From IMG/VR virus record IMGVR_UViG_3300025674_000014: a stretch of 64,000 nt of DNA, one strand, 5' to 3'. Each line of letters starts with the position of its first letter. The stretch's first letter is position 1. Position numbers and translations under genes: made by a program. The notes under the pieces were generated by a model, which was not told the origin of the DNA, did no database searches, and saw only the letters and a list, made by a program, of their open reading frames with translations. Origin of the DNA: a virus. Taxonomy: Duplodnaviria > Caudoviricetes. Of the stretch, positions 1 to 35,801 are shown piece by piece.

Positions 1-585
1 ATCAAATACATAACCTACGAGGCTTTTATTGTTTCGTAGGTTTTCTGGTATATATGGTAACAAATTTTCGATCGAAAGGTTATCTAACAAGTCTCTGAAG
101 TTGCTAGCACTAAATGCTCCAGATTCATCACCAACCACATCGGCGACATCTATATTAACTGTTACACCGGCGGGTAAACCTTTTAATATACCTGAATATC
201 TAGCTTTATCATTTCCTTTACCACCAACACCAACTATAATTTGATCCCCTGGTAAAGCATCTTCTCTTACAAAGTCATAAACTTCACCTACTGCATTTTT
301 AGCTGTGGTTACATTAACACCTCTTAACCCCATTTCAGCAACATAACGTCTTAAAATATCAGCTGCTACATCAGCTGGTACATATTTACCACCCGGGGTA
401 TATCTTCTTGATTTAGGTGAAGGGTCGGTTACGATAACATTTACAATGCCATCTTGACCAACTTTATTTTTAAAGCTTTCAATTAACTTAAAATGACCAA
501 GGTGAGGTGGTTTAAATGAACCAGGAAAAAGAACTATCTTTCTACCTGTTTGCTCTTTGATGAAAAACCACTTAAATGCTGTCAT
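1..585 (-). CDS. HIGH-motif nucleotidyltransferase (cytidylyltransferase/NadD/CoaD-like), partial, runs off the window start
   Basis: Absent from the ORF track. Manual translation from ATG 585 gives MTAFKWFFIKEQTGRKIVLFPGSFKPPHLGH..., a (F/P)GSFxPxHxGH motif, and the frame stays open to base 1. TAAATA lies 6 nt upstream. Confidence 0.75.
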   Translation of the reverse strand, partial: MTAFKWFFIKEQTGRKIVLFPGSFKPPHLGHFKLIESFKNKVGQDGIVNVIVTDPSPKSRRYTPGGKYVPADVAADILRRYVAEMGLRGVNVTTAKNAVGEVYDFVREDALPGDQIIVGVGGKGNDKARYSGILKGLPAGVTVNIDVADVVGDESGAFSASNFRDLLDNLSIENLLPYIPENLRNNKSLVGYVFD

Positions 586-1867
586 TTTTATTATTTAATG
601 TTTTATACCATTCTATATAACATAGTTTAAAGTACTCTCTAAATTTTGTCAATAGATTTTCCATATAAGGTAACAAACAAACGTCTCCTTTATTATATGT
701 TGATGGATCTACATTACAAGCTTTTTCAAATATACTATAGTCTACTTTTATATCTAAATTATCAACAAAGTCTTTTATTTTATCTCCAAATAAAATATCA
801 AAAACAAAAAATTCAATATTATTAAATTTTTGAAGTAAAATAATGAAGAAATGGTATCTTATATTTTTTATTGTCTTGTCATAATCATTATGATCTAATT
901 CAAAATATCTTTCATACCCTTCCTCAACTTGTTTCTTAATTAACTCGTCATCTGCATTAGTAAAAATGTTATCTTGAACTTGTATAATTTGTCTACAACC
1001 AAACATATCAACATTGTTATGTTCAATAAGATAATTATTAGCTCTTGTTACTTTTATACTCGGTAACCCAACAACACCAAACTCGGCATCTCTAATAGTG
1101 TTAAATACCAAACCATCCATTGATATACCAATACCTTTTTCACCTAATACTAAATCAGTTAAACTTTCATTACCATAAACTACATTTTTATAATGCACTT
1201 TTGTACTATCTTTTATAGCTCCAGTTACATTGTTTCTAATACTTGTATATAAGTTACCGTACCATATTAATTTACCGGGTTCAAAATTTGTTTTAAGTCT
1301 TTGTTCCCAAAGTTCGTCTGGTGAAGTATCTTTTATACTATAAAGTTTATGGAATGATTCACACATGAACCCTTGTTTACAAAATCTAAAATTTTTAAAT
1401 CGAGTTTCATCTTCTTCTTTAGGTGGTGTGTTATAACCAATAGAATGATAACATATGTTTTTATAATCTAATTCATCAACATAGAACCAATCTGGTTTAT
1501 CATGTATTTCACCGTAATAGAAGTTTTGCTCTTTTTGAAGATAAACAATTAAACGATCATCATAGTAACCTAACTCTTTTATGTCGTTTTCTATTTTAAA
1601 CTTACATTGTTTATGGTAGTTATTAACTAAACATTCTGGTATAATTAAAATACCGGGTTTTTGTTCTAAAAGATCTTTTTTAAGTAAGTCCCAATCTATC
1701 TCTACTATTTTACCTCCAAGATCAGGTGATATGTAACCACCCATACTATTTTCCCATAAGAAAGGACCGTCTTCATTAAGGAAGTAAATAAGATCGTAAT
1801 TGAATATAGTACAATCTGGTATAGGAATATAATCACCTAAACGTTGGTGATATTTTAAGAAGGACAT
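572..1867 (-). CDS. Putative glycosyltransferase-like protein
   Basis: Track ORF is 572..1921. ATG 1867 (MSFLKY) is preferred because it follows the upstream stop and has TAAGTA 5 nt upstream. The segment GISMDGLVFNTIRDAEFGVVGLPSI resembles a GT-B C-terminal donor-binding motif; the call is weak. Confidence 0.35.
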   Translation of the reverse strand: MSFLKYHQRLGDYIPIPDCTIFNYDLIYFLNEDGPFLWENSMGGYISPDLGGKIVEIDWDLLKKDLLEQKPGILIIPECLVNNYHKQCKFKIENDIKELGYYDDRLIVYLQKEQNFYYGEIHDKPDWFYVDELDYKNICYHSIGYNTPPKEEDETRFKNFRFCKQGFMCESFHKLYSIKDTSPDELWEQRLKTNFEPGKLIWYGNLYTSIRNNVTGAIKDSTKVHYKNVVYGNESLTDLVLGEKGIGISMDGLVFNTIRDAEFGVVGLPSIKVTRANNYLIEHNNVDMFGCRQIIQVQDNIFTNADDELIKKQVEEGYERYFELDHNDYDKTIKNIRYHFFIILLQKFNNIEFFVFDILFGDKIKDFVDNLDIKVDYSIFEKACNVDPSTYNKGDVCLLPYMENLLTKFREYFKLCYIEWYKTLNNKNDSI

Positions 1868-1871
1868 AAAG

Positions 1872-3188
1872 TTACTTAACTGATTTGGCTTTAAATCCAG
1901 AACCACCTGGGTCCTTTTCACTTCTAGGGTTGGTAAAATATGATGAAAAACTCATACCACCGTTACCGAAGTTAGCAGCAGGAGCAGATTGATCTTCTTC
2001 ATCAGAAACTTTAGGTCTATTAGAAGCTAATTTACCACCCATACCACTAAGAATAAAATCGCCGGTGATTTTAATAGAATTAGGATTACCTAACTCATCT
2101 TTACCGTATACGGTATCGGTTAAAACTATACCTTCATGTTTGTCGGCATCACCATAATTATCAGTTTTATAATTTCGTAAAATTTCTTGACCTAATTCCT
2201 TAGTAATATGATAAGTTAAAGCCCCTGCAACTGCAGTATTAATATCTTCTTTTTTAAATACACTATCTAAAGGTGTACCATTAAGTACGGTAAGATAAAC
2301 ATCTTTACTGACAGCACCTCTATCTTTACCGTCTAAAGTTTTAACTCTAATTTTTTTAGGTATACCTTCCCCAACTTCTTTAATCCAAGTTTTAAGAGGT
2401 TTGATTACTCTTTCATTATTATCAAACTGTACTGTAAATGGTTTGTTTAAAACACTATCAAAATTAGGTACACCTTTTTTAGTAACATATATACCGGTAA
2501 TAACTTCAAACCCATACTGATTAGCTATTTTATTAACCTTTTCTCTTAAACTATTTAAAGCTTCATTATCATAGTTAATAACTCTAGATGTTTCCTTTAC
2601 ATTAGGTTTAGGTTTTAAACCAGGTCTTGTTAATTCACCTTTTCTATTTCGTTTTTCAACAAACTGATTAACGCTATGAAAAGCTATTATCTTTTTATCG
2701 CCATAATCTATAACATTTTCTTGACCGTCAATGTATTCGGTGTTTAAAAATTTTGTTGGGTCATTCCACATACCTAATTTTTCTAAATCATTTTTAATAA
2801 GTGGAATTGATTTATCCATAATAGTAAGAATTGTTTTACCTTTATCGATTAATCCATGACCCTCAGGAAAACGAGATGTAAGTCCATCTAATGTAATACC
2901 ATGTACATCTTCTACTTTTTGAGAACCTCTATCTAAAGCAAATTGTCTTTTAAATGTTTCATTACGTTCATCATTAACAACCTTTAAACTTAAATTAACA
3001 CCATCCAGTTTAACCGTAGCTGTACCTTTGTTAAGAATATCAACGCTGTTATATAACACATCTACTAAATCATCGACAGTGTTTACTTCAGGTAAGTCAA
3101 AAGGGTGATACATATGACCAGCAGCACCGCCTTCATTAAGAACGGTGTTGTTGTATGCTTCAAAAATTAGTTCTTGTTCAAATTTCAT
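1872..3188 (-). CDS. ATP-dependent RNA/DNA ligase-fold nucleotidyltransferase-like protein
   Basis: Motif I-like TVKLDGVN, motif III-like NTEYI, motif IV-like HEGIVL and motif V-like SIKIT. N-terminal GGAAGHMxHPFD is a signature I recognise from T4-like phage hypothetical proteins. Confidence 0.55.
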   Translation of the reverse strand: MKFEQELIFEAYNNTVLNEGGAAGHMYHPFDLPEVNTVDDLVDVLYNSVDILNKGTATVKLDGVNLSLKVVNDERNETFKRQFALDRGSQKVEDVHGITLDGLTSRFPEGHGLIDKGKTILTIMDKSIPLIKNDLEKLGMWNDPTKFLNTEYIDGQENVIDYGDKKIIAFHSVNQFVEKRNRKGELTRPGLKPKPNVKETSRVINYDNEALNSLREKVNKIANQYGFEVITGIYVTKKGVPNFDSVLNKPFTVQFDNNERVIKPLKTWIKEVGEGIPKKIRVKTLDGKDRGAVSKDVYLTVLNGTPLDSVFKKEDINTAVAGALTYHITKELGQEILRNYKTDNYGDADKHEGIVLTDTVYGKDELGNPNSIKITGDFILSGMGGKLASNRPKVSDEEDQSAPAANFGNGGMSFSSYFTNPRSEKDPGGSGFKAKSVK

Positions 3189-16030: not shown

Positions 16031-17248
16031 ATGTTTATACCAATTAATCATGGTAATCCTTATGGGTCTAATCCTTTTGGTAACCCTTTTGGGAACGCAG
16101 GGTTTAAACAACCTAATCAAGAACAAAAACAACAACGGCCTCAAGATCAGGCTAGGATGCCTCGTTTTCTTAACTATGTAGCTGATTATGGTGGTTGTGG
16201 TTACTGGAGATGTATATGGCCTGAGTATCTTCTTAATGCCGACGGTAGGTGTATGGTACATACATCAACTGTTATGGTTACAGATCCTAATTATTATAAA
16301 GGACTTACAGCAGTTAAGTTTCAAAGACAAGCTGCACCTCATCAAAAACAATTTATTGAATTTATTAGTAAACTTTCTAAAGAATTTAACTTCAGGGTTA
16401 TCTATGAAATTGATGATATACCATTTAGAGAAGATATCCCTGATTACAATAAACATAAACACGCTTTTACTAGTGATGAAATAAGGAACAATATTCAATC
16501 TATTATGGAAACTTGTGGTAACATGTCTGTTACATGTAAGTTCATGAAAGATTATTTTGCATCTAAATTAGACCCATCAGTTGAAATAGATGTTATACCT
16601 AATTTTATTCCTAAGTTTTGGATTGGTAACTACTACTATAGGGAAAAGATTGAAGAGGATTATGAACGTAATAAGAAACGTCCTCGTATTTGCTGGGCTG
16701 GTTCTGGTGCTCATATTGACGTAGAAAGAAGAATAAAAGGTAAAGACGACTTCTATCATATTAATGAAGTTGTAAGAAAAACTGTTGATGATTTTAAATG
16801 GGTATTCTTTGGTGGTATTTCTCAAGAATTATCTGATTTAGCAAGATCTGGTAAAGTTGAATTCATACCTTGGGCTAAATTATATAATTACCCTGAAAAG
16901 CTATTCACATCTAACATTAATATGTTTATTGCTCCTTTGTCAGATAATAATTTTAACAAAGCTAAGAGCGATCTAAAGTATATTGAAGCTAGTGCTCTTG
17001 GTATCCCTATTGCATGTCAGGATATTTGTACATATGAGGATGCTCCAATTAAGTTCAAGACTGGAGATGAAATGATTGATCGGATAAAAGAGGTACTTGG
17101 GGATGAAAGACGGTATATTAAAGAGTCGGTCAATGGTCGTAATGTAGCAGAATCCAGATTCTTAGAAACTGAAGAGAATCTATATCAATATTATGACAAT
17201 TATATGTACGGTAGGAGTGATTCACGCCGTAAATATCTTACTACTTGA
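16031..17248 (+). CDS. GT-B glycosyltransferase
   Basis: ADYGGCGYWR, YEIDD, WAGSGAH and APLSDNNFNKAKSDLKYIEASALGIP motifs. Confidence 0.65.
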   Translation: MFIPINHGNPYGSNPFGNPFGNAGFKQPNQEQKQQRPQDQARMPRFLNYVADYGGCGYWRCIWPEYLLNADGRCMVHTSTVMVTDPNYYKGLTAVKFQRQAAPHQKQFIEFISKLSKEFNFRVIYEIDDIPFREDIPDYNKHKHAFTSDEIRNNIQSIMETCGNMSVTCKFMKDYFASKLDPSVEIDVIPNFIPKFWIGNYYYREKIEEDYERNKKRPRICWAGSGAHIDVERRIKGKDDFYHINEVVRKTVDDFKWVFFGGISQELSDLARSGKVEFIPWAKLYNYPEKLFTSNINMFIAPLSDNNFNKAKSDLKYIEASALGIPIACQDICTYEDAPIKFKTGDEMIDRIKEVLGDERRYIKESVNGRNVAESRFLETEENLYQYYDNYMYGRSDSRRKYLTT

Positions 17249-19868: not shown

Positions 19869-20618
19869 ATGAATAGAAAAGGTATAATTTTAGCAGGTGG
19901 TAAAGGTACAAGACTTTACCCATTAACATACGGAACTACAAAAGCGTTATTACCGGTTTATGATAAACCGTTGATATATTACCCTATATCCACGTTGTTA
20001 AGCTTTGGTATTAATGAAATTTTAATTATAGGACCCACCTCTACACATCTAGAGCATATGGTAGAAGCTACTTACCCAATTAAAGATGTAACATTTAAGT
20101 ATGAGTTACAACCAGAACCTAAAGGATTAAGTGATGCATTTATTGTTGGTGAAAAGTTTATAGGTGATTCTAATGTAACATTAATACTTGGGGATAATAT
20201 ATTTGATGGTGTTTTTCCAACATTAAATCATAATAATACTATATATGGTGTTAAAGTTAAAGACCCTAAAGCATATGGTGTGTTAGATATCGACAATAAT
20301 TTAGGAATGGTTAAACGTATAGTCGAAAAACCCGAACACCCACCTTCAGATAAAGCAGTACCCGGTTTATATCATTTTGACAATACGTGTGTTGAAAAAG
20401 CTAAACAAGTTAAACCTTCTGCAAGAGGTGAAATAGAAATAACTGATCTAATAAACATGTATATTAATGAAGGTAAATTAACCGTTTCAATATTACCTGA
20501 TGATATGGCTTGGTTTGATTGTGGTACCCATGATCATCTTTTAGAAGCCGGTAATTACGTAAAAGCTATTCAAAATAGAACAGCTAGAGTGGTTGGAAAT
20601 ACTCAGATAATTTGTTAA
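19869..20618 (+). CDS. rmlA: Glucose-1-phosphate thymidylyltransferase
   Basis: GIILAGGKGTRLYPLT, LGDNIF, VEKP, SARGEIEITD and WFDCGT motifs. Confidence 0.9.
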   Translation: MNRKGIILAGGKGTRLYPLTYGTTKALLPVYDKPLIYYPISTLLSFGINEILIIGPTSTHLEHMVEATYPIKDVTFKYELQPEPKGLSDAFIVGEKFIGDSNVTLILGDNIFDGVFPTLNHNNTIYGVKVKDPKAYGVLDIDNNLGMVKRIVEKPEHPPSDKAVPGLYHFDNTCVEKAKQVKPSARGEIEITDLINMYINEGKLTVSILPDDMAWFDCGTHDHLLEAGNYVKAIQNRTARVVGNTQIIC

Positions 20619-21072: not shown

Positions 21073-22161
21073 ATGGCTAAAAAAGATGAATTAAATGATG
21101 TATTTGCAAGTTTAGATAAACTTAACCCTGAAGCTACTTACCTTAAAGATAATGCACTTTCAAATGTTGATACTTGGTATGATACCGGTTGTTATGCACT
21201 AAATGCTATCCTAGGTGGTAGTTGTCGTGAGGGTGGGGTTCCTAAAGGTAGGTTAGTTGGGTTTTCTGGACCATCACAATCTGGTAAGACATTTATTATT
21301 AATAAGATTTTAGGTAATGCACAGAAACAAGGTATTCACCCTGTTATTTTTGATACCGAGTTTGCTGTAGATGCTGCTAGTACTGAAGGGGTTGGGCTAG
21401 ATGCTAGTAGAACTAAGTATGTACCTGTATATACTGTTGAACAATGTCGTAATCAGGTAGTTGCCCTTTTGGATTCTATTAAGGAAAAAGGTTTACAAGG
21501 TAAGTTTATTATTTCTATTGATTCATTAGGTAACCTTGCATCCCAAAAAGAAGTAGATGATGCTGCTAAAGATAAGTCTGCAATGGATATGGGTCTTAGA
21601 GCTAAACAGCTTAAGTCCATGATGCGTATTCTTACTTATAAGGCAGGTGCAGCTGGTTGTACCATTCTATTCAGTAATCATACCTATGACGATCCATCTG
21701 CTTTGATGCCTTCATTGATTAAGCAAGCAGCTGGTGGTAGTGGGCCACAGTATATGGCTTCCATTCTATGTCAGCTTGCTAAGAAAAATGAACGTCAAGA
21801 TGCAAGTAACGATGAAGACGAAATTCTACCTGAAGCTCGTAACTATTCTGGTACCACTCTAAGGTTTCTAACTACTAAGAATCGTTTTGTACCGCCTCTA
21901 CTACAGGCTGAGATTTATCTTAACTATAAATCAGGTCTTGATAGGTATAGTGGTGTTAAAGATATGGCTGTTAATCATGGTGTACTAACTCAAACAGGAT
22001 CAACCTTTCAGATTAACATTGATAGTGAAGATGGTAAACGTAAAGTAGGTGATAAAATCGGTTATTACAAGAATTGGCGTAAAGATGAAGATCTTTGGGA
22101 AAACTATATTATACCAGAATTGGATAAAAAGTTGAAATCCGCCTATAAGTACGGTAAATAG
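21073..22161 (+). CDS. uvsX: UvsX/RecA-like recombinase
   Basis: GPSQSGKT Walker A, FDTE, IDSLGN and NHTY motifs. Confidence 0.92.
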   Translation: MAKKDELNDVFASLDKLNPEATYLKDNALSNVDTWYDTGCYALNAILGGSCREGGVPKGRLVGFSGPSQSGKTFIINKILGNAQKQGIHPVIFDTEFAVDAASTEGVGLDASRTKYVPVYTVEQCRNQVVALLDSIKEKGLQGKFIISIDSLGNLASQKEVDDAAKDKSAMDMGLRAKQLKSMMRILTYKAGAAGCTILFSNHTYDDPSALMPSLIKQAAGGSGPQYMASILCQLAKKNERQDASNDEDEILPEARNYSGTTLRFLTTKNRFVPPLLQAEIYLNYKSGLDRYSGVKDMAVNHGVLTQTGSTFQINIDSEDGKRKVGDKIGYYKNWRKDEDLWENYIIPELDKKLKSAYKYGK

Positions 22162-22167
22162 CCTTAT

Positions 22168-23769
22168 ATGGCTAACATCGCAATCTACGGCTCGCATAAT
22201 GGCGCTATTGCCTTGGAAAATAACGGTGAATATCACGTTATTGAATTTGAACGTTTTTTTAATGTAAAAAATATTGGTCTAGCACAATACAAGCCTCTTC
22301 GTTATAGAGAAGAAGCTGTTTATGCAATGTTAGACTACATTGATAAGGAACTAGGATTTAAAGCTCCTTTCGATAACATGATTCACATTAATACTGAATG
22401 TGTTCATGACGATATTACTTACAGTTACAAGGATTATATTCCTGCTAAGAACGTTTATGAAGGTTGGCACCATCATGCACATGCAAGTGGATCCTTCTAT
22501 CAATCTGATTTTAAACAGGCCTTAATTTTTAGTTTCGACGGCGGTGGTAATGATGGTTTTTTCAACATCTTTTTAGCCGATAGAAAAAATGGTGTTACAT
22601 ATCTTGATAAAACCAACCCCGCCGATCGAACTAAATACGACTTCGACTTTGGGTTCCCATATATGTGTTTTGCACACTTTTGCAAAGACATTAAACAGGA
22701 ATGGATTTCAGATGGTAACCTAGTATACAGTGGTAAGATCATGGGACTCTGTAACTTTGGTAAGAGCAGAGATGAATGGTTACCTCACTTTAAGAAATTT
22801 TATTATGCTAAACCAGATGGTGAAAATTATATTAGATTCTTAAAAGAGTATATTGGAGATCCTTGTGGTTTGGTGTTTGATGAAAACAATAGACTTGAAG
22901 GTCAGTTAAGTTGGGACGTTGCAGCTACATCTCAAAAGGCTTTTGAAGAGTGCTTTTATGAAGTAGCTAAGCCTTATTTAGACAAATATGAGTTACCTAT
23001 TATTATTACTGGTGGGTGTGGTCTTAACATATTACTTAGCACTGATCTACGGCAGCGTTATCCTGAACGGGGTGTCTTCGTGGCTCCTAACACTAATGAT
23101 TGTGGAATTGCTGTTGGGTTATTGGCCGGTTTTAATAAACCCGATACTCCTATTGATATTACATACGGTGGTACGGAACTAATCGATAAAAATACATACC
23201 CTGCTTGGATTGAAAGTAACGTTGCCAAGCCAGTTACATTTAATGCTATTGTTAGTGAACTATGTAGTGGTAAAATCTTTGGAGTTGCAAGAGGTAGGTG
23301 TGAACACGGCCCTAGAGCTCTTGGTAACAGGTCAATTATCTGTAACCCAGCCTTCCCTGAGATGAAAGATATTCTTAACCATAAAGTTAAGCATAGGGAA
23401 TGGTACAGACCATTTGCCCCGGTATGTAGACTAGAAGATGCGTCTAAGTACTTTGAATGGGAAGGAGAATCAAGGCACATGTTATATTGTCCAAGGGTAA
23501 GACCTGAATGGCAAGATAAGCTTTCATCTATTACCCATATTGATGGTACTGCAAGACTTCAAACAGTAACAAGAGAACAAAATGAATGGTTATATGACCT
23601 TCTTACTGAGTTTGAAAAGAAAGCAGGTCATGGGGTTCTTCTCAATACTTCATTTAATATTGCAGGTAAACCAATTCTCAATACTATTGCCGATGCTATG
23701 TGGGTGTTAGAACACTCACAAATGGATTATCTCATTATTGAAGATTTTTACTATGGTAAACATTGGTAA
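22168..23769 (+). CDS. Carbamoyltransferase, CmcH/NodU/TobZ family
   Basis: HHHAHA, FDGGG, GKIMGL, GGCGLN, GPRALGNRSI, KHREWYRPFAP, HIDGTARLQTV and LNTSFN motifs. Confidence 0.92.
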   Translation: MANIAIYGSHNGAIALENNGEYHVIEFERFFNVKNIGLAQYKPLRYREEAVYAMLDYIDKELGFKAPFDNMIHINTECVHDDITYSYKDYIPAKNVYEGWHHHAHASGSFYQSDFKQALIFSFDGGGNDGFFNIFLADRKNGVTYLDKTNPADRTKYDFDFGFPYMCFAHFCKDIKQEWISDGNLVYSGKIMGLCNFGKSRDEWLPHFKKFYYAKPDGENYIRFLKEYIGDPCGLVFDENNRLEGQLSWDVAATSQKAFEECFYEVAKPYLDKYELPIIITGGCGLNILLSTDLRQRYPERGVFVAPNTNDCGIAVGLLAGFNKPDTPIDITYGGTELIDKNTYPAWIESNVAKPVTFNAIVSELCSGKIFGVARGRCEHGPRALGNRSIICNPAFPEMKDILNHKVKHREWYRPFAPVCRLEDASKYFEWEGESRHMLYCPRVRPEWQDKLSSITHIDGTARLQTVTREQNEWLYDLLTEFEKKAGHGVLLNTSFNIAGKPILNTIADAMWVLEHSQMDYLIIEDFYYGKHW

Positions 23770-23788
23770 TAGTTCTATAATATAGCAT

Positions 23789-24586
23789 ATGAGTGAAAGA
23801 AAACTACGTAGAGCTGTAATGCCATTTAGTGGTGGTATGGATAGTGCTGTTATGCTTAACATGGCTCAAACAGCACATGATGAATTATATTGTATTACTT
23901 TTGATTACGGTCAACGTCATAAGCGTGAGATCGAATGTGCTAAAACTCAAATTGAACATAATGAAGTAAGGTCATTTAGTCACTCGTTTGAGTTTCATCG
24001 TATCTATCATAAGATTATCGATGTGTCATTTATTAAGGAACTTGCAACTACTAGTTCACTTACTAATACTGATATTGATAACCCTGATGTTAAAGATATG
24101 GTTGGTGAAGCTCAACCAGCTAGTTATGTACCTTTTAGGAACCAGTTGTTTCTAAGTATTGCATGTGCTTATGCTGAGTCTATTGGTGCTGATACCGTAT
24201 ATCATGGTGCAACCCAAGTTGATAGTCTTGCTGGTTACTGGGATGGTAGTCCTGAATTCCAAGATAGTTTTAATAAACTGATTAGTCTTAATAGACAAAA
24301 TCAAATTGTAGTTAAATGTCCATTGATTAACCTTAGCAAGAAAGACATTATTCTATCTGGTATTAGTAACAGGGTAGATTTTGGTGAAACATATACGTGT
24401 TATAGTGGTGATGAAATTGCTGATGCAACTACACCAAGTAGTGCACTACGTATTAAGGGTTTTTGTGATGCTGGTTATATTGACCCTCAACCATATAAGC
24501 AAGATCTTACATCATTATGGGAAGAGCATGACTGTAAGCCATGCCCTACTGGGTTCTTTTTACAAAAAGGAGGTACTAGAGGTTAA
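23789..24586 (+). CDS. queC: QueC-family PP-loop ATPase with a degenerate zinc site
   Basis: SGGMDS, FDYGQRH, YVPFRN and TYTCY present; the expected CxxCxxC is replaced by ADATTPSSALR. Confidence 0.85.
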   Translation: MSERKLRRAVMPFSGGMDSAVMLNMAQTAHDELYCITFDYGQRHKREIECAKTQIEHNEVRSFSHSFEFHRIYHKIIDVSFIKELATTSSLTNTDIDNPDVKDMVGEAQPASYVPFRNQLFLSIACAYAESIGADTVYHGATQVDSLAGYWDGSPEFQDSFNKLISLNRQNQIVVKCPLINLSKKDIILSGISNRVDFGETYTCYSGDEIADATTPSSALRIKGFCDAGYIDPQPYKQDLTSLWEEHDCKPCPTGFFLQKGGTRG

Positions 24587-25167
24587 TAGTCCTCTAAATC
24601 GTCGTCCTGATATTCGGACATATCATCATCAGGGCGATCATCAATTTCATCATACTCCGTGTCCATAGAAGCGGTGGGATCAACATAATCAGCAGTAGTT
24701 GGTTCCACCGCTTCGCCACCTTTAATGTTAATTTCGTCTAAGTAACCATCAGCTATCATTCCACCTAAAAGTACTTCTGCTTCCTTTTTATCCATTCCTG
24801 TTTTAGTAAGGAACTCCATTATGTCTTTAGCTTTTGCTGAATCGTCTGCTTCAACATATCTTACAACATCACGTTGAGCTGTGTTTAATCTTTCTTCGTA
24901 CGATTTATCAGCAACTTTAAATTCTCTATTACCAAGTTTAACCTTATTACTGGTTTTTTCTTTTCGTTGTCTTGTTGCTCTTGATCTTACACCAGAACCT
25001 TTACCTTTTAACCTCATCATCATTTCATAATAAGACTCTTTTCTTTCTTCACCGGTGTCAGGATCTACGACAGTTTTACGTTCTCTATCTTTGTATTGTT
25101 TTTTACGCCCTTCTTCAATGGACTGCATATACGATTCAAATAGAAATTGATTTTCTCTGTCTTTCAT
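24583..25167 (-). CDS. Hypothetical late protein, possibly head-internal
   Basis: Starts MKDRENQFLFESY, has an acidic C-terminus and TAAATA 6 nt upstream. Confidence 0.65.
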   Translation of the reverse strand: MKDRENQFLFESYMQSIEEGRKKQYKDRERKTVVDPDTGEERKESYYEMMMRLKGKGSGVRSRATRQRKEKTSNKVKLGNREFKVADKSYEERLNTAQRDVVRYVEADDSAKAKDIMEFLTKTGMDKKEAEVLLGGMIADGYLDEINIKGGEAVEPTTADYVDPTASMDTEYDEIDDRPDDDMSEYQDDDLEDY

Positions 25168-25183
25168 TATTATTATTTAATAT

Positions 25184-25795
25184 ATGTGTGCAATATTTGG
25201 TACAAAAAATAAAGAACAATTTGATTCATTATATGAACTAAATCATAAACGTGGTGGGTTTGCATTCAGTGCAGTTTTTAGGAACAAAGAAGGTAAGTTT
25301 ATGACTACTAAAGGTCGTAAATATATCAAACCACTAAGTAATGCAAAGTATATTCTAGCCCATGACCAAGCCCCTACTTCTTCAGTTCGGTTGTATGATT
25401 ACCGTACTTCTCACCCGTTTGTTTGTGGTGAGTGGGTGGTGGCACATAATGGTGTATTAACTAATCATAAGGAACTGTTAAAAGAACACAATTGTGATGT
25501 TGATAGTAGTTATATACCCGCTCTTCTCGATAAGGAGACTAAAGGAGAAGTAACTTCTATTGAAAATGTGTGTAGTTTATTAGAAGGTACATTTGCTTGT
25601 TGGATAGTTAATAGAACAAGTGGTAACATTTACTTGGTTAAACAAGGTAGTACGCTATTTTATGATGGTGCTACATTTTCATCGGTAAAATTTACTGGTA
25701 GTTATGCATTGAGAGACGGGGTTGTTTATCTTGTTGAAGATACAATTGCTCCAATTGGTAAGTTTAAAAGTAACAGTCCTTTTGCATTGATATAG
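25184..25795 (+). CDS. Class II (Ntn) glutamine amidotransferase domain, stand-alone
   Basis: N-terminal M-C nucleophile, HPF, AHNGV, DVDS and LEGTFA motifs. Confidence 0.8.
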   Translation: MCAIFGTKNKEQFDSLYELNHKRGGFAFSAVFRNKEGKFMTTKGRKYIKPLSNAKYILAHDQAPTSSVRLYDYRTSHPFVCGEWVVAHNGVLTNHKELLKEHNCDVDSSYIPALLDKETKGEVTSIENVCSLLEGTFACWIVNRTSGNIYLVKQGSTLFYDGATFSSVKFTGSYALRDGVVYLVEDTIAPIGKFKSNSPFALI

Positions 25796-25820
25796 ACAGC
25801 TACTTTATAAAATATTTTAT

Positions 25821-26900
25821 ATGAAAAGAGCACTCGTATGCGGCGGAGGTGGTTTCATTGGAAGTCACCTCGTTTCCCGTCTTAAAGAAGAAGGATACTG
25901 GGTTAGAGCAGTAGACCTTAAGGAACCGGAATTTTCAACAACCAAAGCTGATGAATTTGTTGGTGGTGATTTAACTGACTATAACTTTGTTCGTGAAGTA
26001 ATTGTAACTGGTGATTATTTCCATAAACCACCTATTCAATATAGAGAGCAGTTCGATGAAATCTATCAACTTGCTGCTGATATGGGTGGCGCTGGTTATA
26101 TTTTTACTGGTGAAAACGATGCTAATGTTATGCAGAACTCAGCATCTATTAACTTAAATATATTAAAGGCTGTAGATGAGTCGAACCTGTTTTTTCGATC
26201 TGATTGGTATCATGAGGCACGTTTAGAACACACTTCTTATAAACCTATTGATACTAAGATATTCTACAGTAGCTCAGCGTGTATGTACCCTGAACATAAC
26301 CAATTAGACCCGGAGAACCCTAACTGTGAAGAAAGTTCCGCATACCCGGCCAACCCAGATAGTGAATATGGATGGGAAAAGCTATTTAGCGAAAGGTTAT
26401 ACCTTGCTTATAATCGGAATAGGGGTATACCCGTTCGTATTGCACGTTTTCACAATATTTTCGGACCTGAAGGAACATGGAAAGGTGGAAGAGAAAAGGC
26501 CCCAGCAGCATTATGTAGAAAGTTTGCCGAAGCCGAATCAGGAGACACCATAGAAGTATGGGGTGACGGTGAACAAACACGGTCTTTCTTATATGTTCAT
26601 GAGTGTGTTGAGGGTATCCGTCGTTTAATGGAATCAGACTTTACCGGTCCAGTTAATATTGGTTCAGATGAGATGGTAACTATTAATAAAATGGTAGAAT
26701 ACCTTAAATCCATTAGCGGTAAATCACTAAAACCAGTACATAAGTTAGATGCACCAACAGGAGTGCGTGGAAGAAACAGTGATAATAAGCTTATCCAAGA
26801 AAAGCTTGGTTGGTCACCTAATTTTTCCTTAAAAGATGGGTTACAACTTACCTATAGATGGATTCTTGAACAAGTAAAACTTGATAAACAAAAGGCATAA
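25821..26900 (+). CDS. NAD-dependent epimerase, GDP-mannose 3,5-epimerase (GME)-like
   Basis: GGGGFIG, QLAADMGG, SSSACMYP, YGWEK and GGREKAPAALCRK motifs. Confidence 0.85.
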   Translation: MKRALVCGGGGFIGSHLVSRLKEEGYWVRAVDLKEPEFSTTKADEFVGGDLTDYNFVREVIVTGDYFHKPPIQYREQFDEIYQLAADMGGAGYIFTGENDANVMQNSASINLNILKAVDESNLFFRSDWYHEARLEHTSYKPIDTKIFYSSSACMYPEHNQLDPENPNCEESSAYPANPDSEYGWEKLFSERLYLAYNRNRGIPVRIARFHNIFGPEGTWKGGREKAPAALCRKFAEAESGDTIEVWGDGEQTRSFLYVHECVEGIRRLMESDFTGPVNIGSDEMVTINKMVEYLKSISGKSLKPVHKLDAPTGVRGRNSDNKLIQEKLGWSPNFSLKDGLQLTYRWILEQVKLDKQKA

Positions 26901-26920: not shown

Positions 26921-28249
26921 ATGAGTAGACAAACGTTAGACTTAGATTATTTCGAAAAAGTCGTGGTGTACAAGAGTCTTACTGATGATCGTTACTTAGC
27001 ATCAGTTATAGACCATGTACAGCCACGATTTTTTACTGATGAAAGCTTTAAACGTGTATTTACGTTAATTACGTCTTTCTTTCAAAAGAGATTTACCGTA
27101 CCTACTAAGACAGAGATATTATCTTTCTGTAATACACCTGAACTTAAGGAAGATTTCAAGAACACCGTTAAGAAGATAAAAGATATTGATAAAAACTTAA
27201 ATGTTGACGAGTTATATCAAAATACGGAACGGTTTCTTAAAGAAAAGTCAGTTTACCATACAATGACTGATGTGGCTGATGATTGTTCTAAAGGTGATAT
27301 TAACCCAGCTTCTATTTTTGATAAGTTTGAGAAGTGTTGTAGTATTAATCTATCAGTAGATACAGGGTTTGACTTCTTACGTTCATATTCACGGTTGATT
27401 GAAGACCTTAAGACCGAAGAACCGACTATATCATCAGGTTGGCAATGGTTAGATAATAAGCTTGATGGTGGGTTCCTTGAGAACGGTAGGTCTATTTACA
27501 TATTTGCTGGTGAAACTAATGTTGGTAAGTCAATTGTGTTAGGTAACATAGCATGTAACATAGCTAAACAAGGTAAGACAGTATTATTGGTTAGTCTTGA
27601 GATGTCTGAAATGGTTTATGCTAAGAGATTAGCTGGTAACTTAACAGGTATTGAAGTTAATAATCTTAGATATGAATTACCTCAGTTAGAAGATAAGTTA
27701 CAATCATTTATTACTAATAACCCAACTAGTAGATTGTTAATTAAGGAGTTTCCACCTAGTACTATTACGCCTTCCCAATTAGGTGCCTTTATTAAGAAGA
27801 TACAACAGAATGGAGTTGAGTTAGATGCTATTGTACTTGATTATGTTAACCTAATGCATTCACCAATGGGTAATAACAGCTATGAAAGAGTTAAGATAGC
27901 TACAGAACAGGTACGAGCCTTGTCATATCAGTATAACTGCCCTGTTATTACTGCAACACAGTTGAATAGGTCAGGTTATGATAAGGAAGATCCTAGTCTT
28001 GATACTATTGGTGAAAGTATGGGGTTGGCAATGGGTGCTGATGCTATCTTTTCCGTATTTCAGAAAGAAGAAGACAGGGACTTAGACATCATTCGTATGG
28101 GTGTTATGAAGAACCGTTTCGGACCTAATCATGGTACTAGTGAGTTTAGTATTCATTACCCAACTCTTACTATTAGTGATGGTGATATACATGACATTGG
28201 TAGTACTTCGGCTGATGTTATATCAGTCATGGATGGTTTAGGTAAATAG
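26921..28249 (+). CDS. gp41: Replicative helicase gp41 (DnaB-like)
   Basis: GETNVGKS, SLEMSE, LDYVN, TATQLNRSG and KNRFG motifs. Confidence 0.92.
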   Translation: MSRQTLDLDYFEKVVVYKSLTDDRYLASVIDHVQPRFFTDESFKRVFTLITSFFQKRFTVPTKTEILSFCNTPELKEDFKNTVKKIKDIDKNLNVDELYQNTERFLKEKSVYHTMTDVADDCSKGDINPASIFDKFEKCCSINLSVDTGFDFLRSYSRLIEDLKTEEPTISSGWQWLDNKLDGGFLENGRSIYIFAGETNVGKSIVLGNIACNIAKQGKTVLLVSLEMSEMVYAKRLAGNLTGIEVNNLRYELPQLEDKLQSFITNNPTSRLLIKEFPPSTITPSQLGAFIKKIQQNGVELDAIVLDYVNLMHSPMGNNSYERVKIATEQVRALSYQYNCPVITATQLNRSGYDKEDPSLDTIGESMGLAMGADAIFSVFQKEEDRDLDIIRMGVMKNRFGPNHGTSEFSIHYPTLTISDGDIHDIGSTSADVISVMDGLGK

Positions 28250-32696: not shown

Positions 32697-33791
32697 ATGT
32701 CAGAAGATAATATTATAGATGCAGAATTCGAAGAAACCCCTAATGAGGAAACCACTCCGGAAGTAGTAGAAGAACAGACACAGCCTACTGACGAATACCA
32801 ACCTAACGAAAGAATTAAAGTTCTAATTGTAGGTAAGGGTTATATTGGTGAAACATTAAGTAACTTTTTAGCAATTGACGAAGAAAATGTAGAAGTACAT
32901 AGTATTAATAGAGAGCAAGTTAACTATCTAGATAGACAAGATCTTCTTACGTTTTTTATTAACTATGAAAATGAAGGAGTTAAATTTGACCATGTTGTAA
33001 ACTGTGTAGGTTATGCTGGTGAACAGAATATTGATGATGCTAAAGACAATAAAGAGCTAGCATACTATCTAAATGCTATCTTTCCTATCACTCTTGCATC
33101 TGTCGTGCAGGAAATGGAAATACCTTCATTGATTCATATCGGTTCGGGTTGTATTTACACTGGTATATCAGAAAATGAAAACGGTTGGAAGGAAGAAGAC
33201 ATTCCAAACTTCGGTCTTAACAATGAAGAGTCTTCTTGGTACTCTAAGACCAAGCATGCATCTGAAATGGCATTGACTTCATCGTTTAAGAATGTGTATA
33301 GTTTGCGTATTCGTATGCCATTTAGTGAAGTACCTTCACCTAAAGGTAATAGAAACCTTTTTGAAAAGCTTATTAAGTATACCACCATTCTTAATGAAGA
33401 GAATAGTGCTACTTATTTGTTTGATCTTCATAATACTATTTATAACATTGTTGTATCTAATGAAATCCCATATGGTATCTATAATGTTGTAAGTGATGGT
33501 AAGTTTAGTCCTGCTCTATTCGTAGAAATCTTGAGAGAAAAAGGAGATAAGCTTAAAGAGGCTGGTATTATTGAAGAGGTTTCTGATCTTGATAGGTATG
33601 AGTTAGTTAACCTTGAACAATTCAAGGAAAAGAACCTTACCAAAGAAAATAGAAGTGTTACAATTGTTGATAACGGTCTTGTTAAAGAAATGATTAATAT
33701 TGAATATGCTAATATTAGTGACAAAGAGTTCTTATCAGGAATTATTGATCAATATATTGAAAATATAAAGATCGTGAAAACTAATGATTAA
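32697..33791 (+). CDS. NDP-4-keto-6-deoxyglucose 3,5-epimerase/4-reductase-like SDR (RmlD/NRS-ER family)
   Basis: GKGYIG, HIGSGCIY, EEDIPNF, YSKTK, LRIRMP, RNLFEKLIKY and NSATYL motifs. Confidence 0.75.
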   Translation: MSEDNIIDAEFEETPNEETTPEVVEEQTQPTDEYQPNERIKVLIVGKGYIGETLSNFLAIDEENVEVHSINREQVNYLDRQDLLTFFINYENEGVKFDHVVNCVGYAGEQNIDDAKDNKELAYYLNAIFPITLASVVQEMEIPSLIHIGSGCIYTGISENENGWKEEDIPNFGLNNEESSWYSKTKHASEMALTSSFKNVYSLRIRMPFSEVPSPKGNRNLFEKLIKYTTILNEENSATYLFDLHNTIYNIVVSNEIPYGIYNVVSDGKFSPALFVEILREKGDKLKEAGIIEEVSDLDRYELVNLEQFKEKNLTKENRSVTIVDNGLVKEMINIEYANISDKEFLSGIIDQYIENIKIVKTND

Positions 33792-34851
33792 TATTTTAAT
33801 AATTGGTAAAGGTTATATTGGAAGAAATTTAGCTACCTTTTTAACGCAACCTGATATATCAATTTATAACATTGAAAAATCTGATCTAGATTATTGGTCT
33901 TATGATAATCTAGATCAATATATACAATCTCAAAAAAATAAAGGTATTACATTTAGCTTTATTATTAATTGTACTGGATTCTACGGTGATCAAATAAATG
34001 AATGTAATCATTACCCTAGATTATTTTTACACTTAACTGCAACTCTTCCAATTATACTATCTAACCTATGTACTAAGCATAATTGTAAATACATTCACTT
34101 AAGTTCTGCAGATATATACAATGGAGATAATGCTTTTACTAAAGATGAAATAGGTAGTATGGTGAGTTTTGCTCTTACCGTAAATGAGGGTTGGTCAGAA
34201 AATAATTTACCTAATCATGGAATATTTGCAAATAAATCCTCAACTTTTTCTAAAACACACCATGTTATAGAAAATTGTTTAAGGGGTTTAAACAACGTTT
34301 ATATTTTAAGAATAAAAAATTGTATTAGCGGTATTTTCCATAAAAAAAATTATCTATTAAAAGTAATAACAAAAGAAAGAATTATTAATAAAGAAAATTC
34401 AGTTACATTTTTACCTGATCTCTTTAATTTTATTAATGAAATATTAAAAGCTTCAAATATACCCACTGGTATATACAATATAGTTAATGGTGAATGTTTT
34501 TTTAATAAGATAATTTTTGATGAACTAAAAAATTACACAGACGAGTTTGAAAATTTGAAAATATTTTTTAATAGAAAAGCATTAATTGATAATAATTTAA
34601 AATTATCCCCAGAACGACCTTTTGCAATTCTAAAAAATACTAAGGCAAGTAAGTATATTAATTTTACTAAAGTAGATAATCAGTTAATTAATAAATGTTT
34701 AAAAGAAATTATAGAAGATAAAAAAATAAACGATTATTATTTTAGCGTTCATAATGAAAAAAATGTTAGTTTGAGGGATGAAAGTAGATATTCAAATAAA
34801 CCAGATTTAGTTAACGAATCTTTAGTTGAAAAAATGTGGAATAATGCATAA
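33784..34851 (+). CDS. Degenerate tandem paralogue of the preceding SDR
   Basis: GKGYIG is retained, but YSKTK has become FSKTH and SGCIY has become SADIY. Confidence 0.65.
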   Translation: MINILIIGKGYIGRNLATFLTQPDISIYNIEKSDLDYWSYDNLDQYIQSQKNKGITFSFIINCTGFYGDQINECNHYPRLFLHLTATLPIILSNLCTKHNCKYIHLSSADIYNGDNAFTKDEIGSMVSFALTVNEGWSENNLPNHGIFANKSSTFSKTHHVIENCLRGLNNVYILRIKNCISGIFHKKNYLLKVITKERIINKENSVTFLPDLFNFINEILKASNIPTGIYNIVNGECFFNKIIFDELKNYTDEFENLKIFFNRKALIDNNLKLSPERPFAILKNTKASKYINFTKVDNQLINKCLKEIIEDKKINDYYFSVHNEKNVSLRDESRYSNKPDLVNESLVEKMWNNA

Positions 34852-34862
34852 TTATTAAATGC

Positions 34863-35801
34863 ATGAATATTTTAGTCACAGGTGGTTTTGGTTTTATTGG
34901 CAGTCATCTTTGCAACTATTTAACCGATAAAGGTTGCAGCGTCTATAATATTGATAATAAAACCTACGCCTGTGACTATGTTAATATTAATAACGTTAAA
35001 ATTAAAAAGCATTTTAACTTAGATATTAACGAACCTTTTAATTTTAACGATTTTACAAACTTAGATCGATTTGATGCATGTATACATTTAGCTGCTGAAA
35101 GTCATGTCGATAATAGCATTAAAAACCCTAACATTTTTGCTTTAACTAATGTAGTTGGTACTATAAATGTACTTAATTTAGCTAAACAACTTCGTATACC
35201 TCGTTTTATCCAAGTATCAACAGATGAAGTATACGGTTCATTAGGTGAAAACGAACCTTCTTGGACAGAAAATACCCCTATTAGTCCAAACTCACCATAT
35301 TCAGCATCAAAAGCAAGTGGAGATATGATTGCATTATCATATCACCGTACATATGGTATGGATATACGCATTACCCGTTGTTGTAATAACTTTGGTATAG
35401 GTCAACATATTGAAAAACTTATCCCTAAATCAATTAACTGTGCAAACAAGTACGGTTTTATCGATATATACGGTGACGGTACAAATGTAAGAGAATGGAT
35501 ACATGCCCATGATCATGCAAGAGGTATTTTTAAAGTGTTACAGTTTGGTAATGCTGGTGAAATATACAATATAGGCTCAGGAGAAGAATTAACTAATAAC
35601 GAAATAGCTTCTATGATTAGTACATTTACTGGAACTAATGCGAAGTTAAGCTATATTGAAGATAGGAAAGGTCACGATAAAAGATACTCTTTAAACTTTG
35701 ATAAGATTGCAAATCTAGGGTTTAAATGTAGGAGATCAATTCGTGATAGTAAAGAATGGGATGAGATGGTTCAGTATTACAAAGAATACCAAAAAGCCTA
35801 A
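34863..35801 (+). CDS. rmlB: dTDP-glucose 4,6-dehydratase
   Basis: TGGFGFIG, HLAAESHVDNSI, STDEVYG, YSASK, RCCNNFG and DRKGHDKRY motifs. Confidence 0.92.
   Translation: MNILVTGGFGFIGSHLCNYLTDKGCSVYNIDNKTYACDYVNINNVKIKKHFNLDINEPFNFNDFTNLDRFDACIHLAAESHVDNSIKNPNIFALTNVVGTINVLNLAKQLRIPRFIQVSTDEVYGSLGENEPSWTENTPISPNSPYSASKASGDMIALSYHRTYGMDIRITRCCNNFGIGQHIEKLIPKSINCANKYGFIDIYGDGTNVREWIHAHDHARGIFKVLQFGNAGEIYNIGSGEELTNNEIASMISTFTGTNAKLSYIEDRKGHDKRYSLNFDKIANLGFKCRRSIRDSKEWDEMVQYYKEYQKA

Follow-up and report, generated by a model that had tools for sequence, protein, structure and literature searches.

A putative scattered 7-deazaguanine pathway with a cysteine-poor QueC and a standalone glutamine amidotransferase between uvsX and gene 41 of an uncultured T4-like phage

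Two described arrangements resemble the locus considered here. In the Gat-QueC protein of Enterobacteria phage 9g and of Crenarchaeota, a class II (Ntn) glutamine amidotransferase (Gat) with an N-terminal cysteine nucleophile is fused to a QueC module; the 9g protein is a single polypeptide of 471 aa that keeps the zinc cysteines of QueC, has DpdA1 as partner and no QueF, and yields the archaeosine base G+ (dG+ in DNA), not 7-cyano-7-deazaguanine (preQ0) (PMC6884629). The Schizotequatroviruses (KVP40, phi-Grn1, VH7D, nt-1) and Pseudomonas phage pf16 are T4-like phages in which QueC is followed by a standalone Gat of ~200 aa, with FolE, QueD, QueE and a bimodular QueF also encoded, the genes clustered next to replication genes, and DpdA2 beside QueF. 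The present analysis concerns a QueC gene and a standalone Gat gene located between uvsX and gene 41 in a 64,000-nucleotide stretch of DNA (IMG/VR record IMGVR_UViG_3300025674_000014; its full length is called the window below). The source is an uncultured, AT-rich, aquatic T4-like myovirus of ~32% G+C, with a DNA polymerase only ~32% identical to those of its nearest cultured phages, the cyanophages. Its population is abundant in ENA assemblies ERZ27275004 to ERZ27275017 and in JGI sample 3300010300. FolE, QueD, QueE, QueC with Gat, and QueF of this phage constitute a full though dispersed route to a modified guanine base, and its own DNA is probably where that base is used.

Five genes in total lie between UvsX and gp41, one of them on the minus strand. 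A preliminary description of this DNA had placed four same-strand enzymes in the interval, and family matches confirm all four where it had put them; the fifth, minus-strand gene had been missed. The interval and its anchors are as follows:

21073..22161, + strand: UvsX recombinase, left anchor (Pfam RecA, 6e-19)
22168..23769, + strand: NodU/CmcH/TobZ-family carbamoyltransferase, 533 aa (Carbam_trans_C, 1e-61; phrog_1601, 5e-119)
23789..24586, + strand: QueC, 265 aa (Pfam QueC, 1.6e-51, 175 bits)
24583..25167, - strand: conserved charged protein, 194 aa (kept in 20 related loci)
25184..25795, + strand: standalone class II (Ntn) Gat, 203 aa (GATase_6/7, ~5e-7; phrog_12378, 1.5e-12)
25821..26900, + strand: GDP-mannose 3,5-epimerase-like short-chain dehydrogenase/reductase (SDR), 359 aa (PDB 2C59, 1.4e-91)
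26921..28249, + strand: gp41 replicative helicase, right anchor (DnaB_C, 1e-27)

The four enzymes had been proposed to act together on a new substrate, and their co-occurrence was examined in 58 IMG/VR loci of related uncultured T4-like phages that hold the entire UvsX-gp41 interval. Only QueC and Gat are constant, each being present in 58/58, versus 5/58 for the carbamoyltransferase and 4/58 for the SDR epimerase. A small GT2_5 glycosyltransferase comes after Gat in 53 of the 58, in the slot that the epimerase fills here, and the cargo of other lineages includes FkbM methyltransferases, thioredoxin and a GIY-YIG homing endonuclease. Among 12 long related contigs, including two with a completeness of at least 90%, Carbam_trans_C was found in none, FolE in 8 and QueE in 11, with both FolE and QueE in the two near-complete genomes. 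The UvsX-gp41 interval is a hotspot in which cargo varies around a fixed core of QueC and Gat, and the carbamoyltransferase, QueC, Gat and epimerase do not form one unit.

The interpretation judged probable is that the block combines three unrelated elements in this hotspot, with the QueC-Gat core acting as a glutamine-dependent preQ0 synthase. Gat would hydrolyse glutamine through its N-terminal cysteine and pass the ammonia to QueC, which with ATP would convert 7-carboxy-7-deazaguanine (CDG), supplied by the phage FolE, QueD and QueE, to the amide and then to the nitrile, preQ0; the bimodular QueF of the phage would then take preQ0 to preQ1. The carbamoyltransferase and the epimerase would belong to a glycan toolkit, for example in GDP-L-galactose synthesis and sugar O-carbamoylation, and the opposite-strand gene would be a late, internal-protein-like virion gene.

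The 265-aa protein carries the PP-loop SGGMDS together with FDYGQRH, YVPFRN and AGYWDG, all of them invariant in 14 subfamily members. Its Pfam score is well above threshold (175 bits against a cut-off of 22), whereas the TIGR00364 equivalog score falls slightly short (147.9 against 150.3). An AlphaFold2 (AF2) model (predicted TM-score, pTM, 0.81) has 2PG3 and 3BL5 as its best PDB matches (E ~1e-11; TM-scores, normalised to the target, of 0.70-0.77); other PP-loop enzymes match five orders of magnitude less well, and the modelled fold is that of QueC. The protein is presumed to be the CDG to preQ0 synthase. A TATAAT (-10 box) of its own precedes the QueC ATG by 7 nt, and a sigma70-like promoter match stops 6 nt 5' of the UvsX ATG.

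That this QueC is altered was correctly recognized in the preliminary description. Three of the four zinc-ligand cysteines (C...CxxCxxC near the C-terminus) are replaced and only the first is kept, so that ADATTPSSA stands where B. subtilis QueC has GCGECPAC; the protein further has a 12-residue insertion and is extended at its C-terminus. The extension (residues 236-265, window 24494-24583) is common to the subfamily and ends in a conserved GTRG(P) in the window lineage. All 13 other subfamily members inspected show the same cysteine loss, as does QueC in 58/58 of the related intervals, and each of the 120 matches listed for this Cys-less subfamily is at least 51% identical. None of more than 40% identity appears among the matches listed from 185,579 prokaryotic species genomes. 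Among the matches listed, then, Cys-less QueC is by its sequences a large subfamily of viral or metagenomic origin only. The cysteines are kept in QueC of KVP40, pf16, 9g, BSTP12 and CP220, and identity with the CP220-type 'QueC*', a 7-amido-7-deazaguanine (ADG) synthase, was rejected because the CP220 protein retains them. The altered QueC pocket had been read as the sign of a new substrate. Cys-less QueC, however, is found with or without the carbamoyltransferase and always together with FolE, QueD, QueE and QueF; being independent of the carbamoyltransferase, it gives no pointer to a new substrate tied to its neighbors.

The remaining genes of the pathway are in the same phage. The preliminary description had reported folE, queD, queE and dpdA as absent from the window, which holds for the open reading frames (ORFs) scanned (53 were put through Pfam or PHROGs; 23 called ORFs of 45-171 aa were left out) and yet misleads, as folE, queD, queE and queF are just outside. 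ENA contig L038 is 100% identical to window positions 1-1967 and extends upstream of them; L220 and L221 are 99.9% identical to the window end, and L224 overlaps L221 at 99.4%. These contigs add the following:

about -4.9 to -5.5 kb from the window start, on L038: FolE (PF01227)
about -8.0 to -8.7 kb from the window start, on L038: QueD (PTPS)
about -9.7 to -10.4 kb from the window start, on L038: QueE (phrog_2076, 2e-41)
~+6.7 to +8.9 kb past the window end, L224:7709-9932, on the minus strand of that locus: metallophosphoesterase, AAA_28/dNK-like P-loop kinase and bimodular QueF (PF14819 + PF14489), together in one operon

With FolE, QueD, QueE, QueC (and Gat) and QueF all present, the whole GTP-to-preQ1 route is phage-encoded, its genes being spread over ~83 kb and the QueF operon adjoining the major capsid gene, gp23. 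A full-genome search for folE, queD, queE and dpdA had been called for, with the expectation that a complete canonical pathway elsewhere, or lack of linkage in related genomes, would speak against a new one; folE, queD and queE were found, completing canonical biosynthesis, and the genes are unlinked in relatives, dpdA alone not being found in the ~100 kb of this phage that was seen. Beside QueE (L038:12407-16825) are genes for a DUF1796 papain-like protein, conserved in lineage fragment G002 too, a 639-aa GT1 glycosyltransferase and a 557-aa radical SAM protein.

Gat begins with MCAIFG, has conserved HNG and DSS, and aligns with the Gat domain of 9g Gat-QueC. An alignment of 15 sequences shows that the N-terminal Cys (MC), RG, HxQAPT, the HNG oxyanion motif and D(S/T) are kept, giving the N-terminal Cys, Asn-Gly oxyanion hole and Asp of a class II Ntn glutaminase; HxQAPT here corresponds to NARAEPT in 9g. 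Unlike the 9g polypeptide, QueC and Gat are two separate genes, 597 bp apart with the minus-strand gene between them, in a phage that does have QueF. A Gat homologue directly follows QueC in pf16, KVP40, phi-Grn1 and Vibrio phage 2.275.O, the pairs residing in clusters with FolE, QueD and QueF, and in the T4-like phages with a DpdA2 homologue as well. By these comparisons a standalone Gat beside QueC recurs in the deazaguanine pathways of T4-like phages, cultured ones included. The Gat of the Schizotequatroviruses and pf16 is of the same family as that of the window, and their QueF is 38-47% identical to homologues in relatives of the present phage, which in contrast to them has dispersed genes, a Cys-less QueC, no DpdA2 found and an opposite-strand gene splitting QueC from Gat.

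The simplest role of Gat that we infer is that of a glutaminase feeding ammonia to QueC. A predicted QueC and Gat complex scored 0.02, which counts neither for nor against the pairing. The DNA of phi-Grn1 contains dPreQ1 and mdPreQ1 and no dG+ (PMC10516641, Table 1), and dG+ in nt-1 depends on ArcS (PMC10516641). Because phi-Grn1 has the split pair and yet no dG+, such a pair is compatible with preQ0 flux, and the two phages together argue that a standalone Gat causes no diversion to archaeosine in them. The suggestion in the preliminary description of a split Gat and QueC for 7-deazaguanine chemistry is upheld, therefore, by the same pair in the KVP40, phi-Grn1, pf16 and 2.275.O clusters and by the presence of FolE, QueD, QueE and QueF; its alternative, a four-enzyme pathway for a new substrate, does not hold, so that the description as a whole is partly supported.

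Where the base goes was approached through related phages. In a sister clade, the slot bounded by a baseplate gene on one side and the capsid gene on the other encodes a 268-aa protein together with a formyltransferase (PF00551), a kinase and QueF. Identities of the 268-aa protein to a CP220 protein (46%), to the 'DNA guanine transglycosylase' of Flavobacterium phage immuto_2-6A (41.5%) and to a phiST protein (26%) indicate that it is DpdA3. The DpdA3-formyltransferase-kinase-QueF series is complete in 49 of 80 QueF loci and matches the fdPreQ1-type pathway, in which DpdA3, formyltransferase and QueF adjoin (PMC10516641). In the window lineage, unlike these sisters, a metallophosphoesterase occupies that slot and the locus is without DpdA3 and formyltransferase; Metallophos-kinase-QueF is the order in 9/9 lineage loci with enough upstream sequence. 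Conservation of the kinase in both forms is a hint of nucleoside- or nucleotide-level chemistry. In sister phage G012 (L218:8557-11480), a tryptophan-halogenase-family flavoenzyme (5e-79) and an asparagine-synthase-like Gat/PP-loop protein are encoded between DpdA3 and formyltransferase-kinase-QueF, and could be extra deazaguanine tailoring enzymes.

The search for a transglycosylase in the window lineage covered ~100 kb, roughly half of the genome of this phage, and 11 fragments of the lineage; neither DpdA3 nor the formyltransferase was found there. A DpdA2 protein search was negative in lineage fragments G002 and G003 and in three sister-clade genomes, a search for DUF6610/DpdA4 gave a single weak match, inside the DpdA3 gene of G008, and a search for ArcS DUF5591 was negative. 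Pfam TGT was negative on 17 related contigs and was discarded, since it also misses KVP40, CP220, pf16 and Vibrio phage 2.275.O; blind to the DpdA2/DpdA3 homologues of KVP40, CP220 and pf16, it is uninformative on absence. Several genes were considered as DpdA candidates and set aside: a 355-aa gene lying between FolE and QueD is neither conserved nor matched by a homologue in any phage, a 149-aa gene and its relatives are internal-protein-like, p430 and the Metallophos protein beside QueF have no similarity to any DpdA, a 431-aa gene at the window start gave no Atlas match, and a 405-aa gene located between gp46 and gp43 resembles a GT-B glycosyltransferase. By analogy with the DpdA3-bearing sisters, phage DNA is slightly favored as the destination of the base, and only slightly because no transglycosylase was found in this lineage. 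The preQ1 could reach DNA via an unrecognised enzyme, enter the nucleotide pool, or go to tRNA.

The carbamoyltransferase has Carbam_trans_N and Carbam_trans_C domains, with the HxxxH...D metal site of a Kae1-like N-domain and a YrdC-like C-domain, and its HHHAH and DGGG align with HHLAH and DGQG of TobZ. Its solved relatives (7xb6, 2e-50; TobZ, 5e-42) are all O-carbamoyltransferases of sugars or polyketides. The label of GDP-mannose 3,5-epimerase (GME), already given in the preliminary description, is sound, as the Arabidopsis enzyme, 2C59, is far ahead of other SDR families (1.4e-91 vs ~6e-27 for the next). The nearest cultured-phage homologues of both are in cyanophage S-SCSM1 (40% identity for the carbamoyltransferase, 57% for the epimerase), where, as in other cyanomyovirus sugar-gene islands, they are found among glycosyltransferases, GDP-mannose dehydratase and methyltransferases. 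The S-SCSM1 cluster has no QueC or Gat, whereas in the present phage the carbamoyltransferase and the epimerase are separated, one on each side of the QueC-Gat core. A phage-encoded carbamoyltransferase of the Carbam_trans_N/C family is also known to act on 5-hydroxymethylcytosine (5hmC); it co-occurs with a ThyA-like dCMP hydroxymethylase and MazG, and carbamoyltransferases on unmodified contigs have glycosyltransferase neighbors (PMC8670742). Unlike that system, no PF00303 (ThyA-like) match was found among the window ORFs scanned. The numbering of the 5hmC-specificity residues (W408, G421, R423) does not match TobZ. Judged by its relatives, the carbamoyltransferase most likely O-carbamoylates a sugar or glycan, and it and the epimerase are lineage-specific insertions, most likely serving a glycan or nucleotide-sugar toolkit.

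Sugar genes are scattered through the window and comprise RmlA, RmlB, two RmlD-like genes, several glycosyltransferases, a PfkB kinase and GNAT, including:

19869-20618, directly after gp43: RmlA (TIGR01207, 2e-76)
32697-35801, after the sliding clamp: two divergent RmlD-like genes and RmlB (TIGR01181, 1e-93)

The GT2_5 gene of this phage has moved to ~+2.4 to +3.0 kb past the window end (L224:13562-14242), beside Pyr_excise (endonuclease V-like) and baseplate genes. The 405-aa protein mentioned above (window 16031-17248, + strand, between gp46 and DNA polymerase) is clade-wide (399-410 aa in L125-L127) and without a Pfam match; in the Atlas it resembles GT-B (glycosyltransferase group 1/4) clusters, and as a glycosyltransferase-like gene of the replication core it could have DNA as its target. 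In one sister lineage (L010 and L011, 1456-5217) the DNA polymerase match is in pieces with ~0.9 kb and ~0.2 kb extra between them, which suggests insertion of an intein or homing endonuclease in gp43.

The minus-strand gene at 24583-25167 exactly fills the gap between QueC and Gat and is 52-98% identical in 20 related loci, conservation that marks it as a real gene. Its 194-aa product has no match in Pfam, PHROG or NCBIfam, is highly charged with an acidic tail, and has an N-terminus (M..F..E..IEE|G) like the capsid-targeting leader of T4 internal proteins; a TATTAAATA-like late motif is situated just 5' of the gene. Unrelated but similarly built minus-strand genes occupy its slot in distant relatives. 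By these features it is probably a late, virion-packaged protein and not a pathway enzyme. Other charged, fast-evolving proteins are interleaved with the deazaguanine genes (window 1872-3188 on the minus strand, L038:9227-9676, L125:7746-8912 and L126:7720-8760); like the 194-aa protein they start with a short leader ending in L/I/F-x-E, as in T4 internal-protein targeting sequences, and may likewise be packaged virion proteins.

Several observations weigh against a preQ0-synthesizing core flanked by unrelated cargo. The zinc site absent from this QueC is present in every characterised QueC, standalone Gats are known from sequence alone, and the fused Gat-QueC of 9g makes dG+. No DpdA was found in the sequence searched, and the carbamoyltransferase is packed 19 nt upstream of QueC and occurs in exactly the lineage that is without the formyltransferase seen in its sisters, so that a functional link retains some plausibility. 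Such a link could take the form of a carbamoyltransferase that replaces the DpdN-like formyltransferase of the sisters and transfers a carbamoyl group to the aminomethyl of preQ1, whether this is a free base, a nucleotide or part of DNA, giving 7-(ureidomethyl)-7-deazaguanine. The exchange seen between the 49 sister loci and the nine of the window lineage would fit, as would the position of the carbamoyltransferase directly 5' of QueC both here and in the more distant L147, the carbamoylation of a DNA base, 5hmC, by an enzyme of the same family (PMC8670742), and the known formyl and methyl derivatives of dPreQ1 (PMC10516641). The correlation reflects a single evolutionary split, however, and the carbamoyltransferase and QueF regions are joined in this phage only, in no sister-lineage contig; the solved relatives are all O-carbamoyltransferases, the closest phage homologue is in a glycan cluster, QueC is preceded by a -10 box of its own, the searches of the lineage yielded no transglycosylase, and with sugar genes interspersed genome-wide adjacency carries little weight. 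Carbamoylation of preQ1 is accordingly considered quite unlikely, and equally doubtful is its corollary, that N-carbamoyl-preQ1 enters DNA via an unrecognised transglycosylase or passes through the nucleotide pool by means of the kinase and phosphoesterase beside QueF.

Other readings concern the product and its use. The split Gat and QueC might work as the fused protein of 9g and Crenarchaeota does, with the amidine G+ as product: the two Gats align and have in common the MC nucleophile, RG, HNG and DS, and 9g Gat-QueC with DpdA gives dG+ (PMC6884629). The phage nevertheless keeps a bimodular QueF, which needs preQ0, and in the KVP40 group the DNA of phi-Grn1, with its split pair, and of phi-ST2 has dPreQ1 and no dG+, while the dG+ of nt-1 requires ArcS; archaeosine synthesis is thus rather improbable here. 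It is unlikely, too, that the pathway has ceased to serve DNA and that preQ1, or its nucleoside or nucleotide, goes to host Tgt for tRNA queuosine or has another small-molecule role. DpdA3 and formyltransferase are indeed missing from the syntenic slot in all nine lineage loci and were not found elsewhere in the sequence searched, NAU codons should be frequent at ~32% G+C, and the kinase and phosphoesterase fit a nucleoside or nucleotide form of preQ1; but roughly half of the genome is out of view, members of the DpdA families easily escape detection, a DpdA is present in all phages so far examined that have deazaguanine synthesis genes (PMC10516641), and the sister clade clearly pairs the pathway with DpdA3. 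That the four enzymes form one new pathway on a non-deazaguanine substrate, with amidation or dehydration of a uronate or carbamoyl group for instance, might be argued from their common strand, tight spacing and the altered C-terminus of QueC. Since the genes are unlinked in relatives, Cys-less QueC goes with FolE, QueD, QueE and QueF and not with the carbamoyltransferase, and fold and motifs are those of QueC, this proposal is exceedingly improbable and close to refuted. Synthesis of preQ0 by QueC and Gat, within a scattered pathway to preQ1, is the reading preferred over these.

In summary, a QueC that has lost its zinc site throughout a very large group of uncultured aquatic T4-like phages bears on the role of zinc in QueC, and the standalone Gat adds to a literature in which the deazaguanine papers searched describe Gat-QueC in fused form only. 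N-carbamoyl-preQ1 (7-ureidomethyl-7-deazaguanine), were it made, would be an undescribed DNA base. The exchange of DpdA3 and formyltransferase for a phosphoesterase in one lineage, together with the gain of a carbamoyltransferase, offers a comparison for how phages diversify the side chain of deazaguanine bases and deliver the base to DNA.

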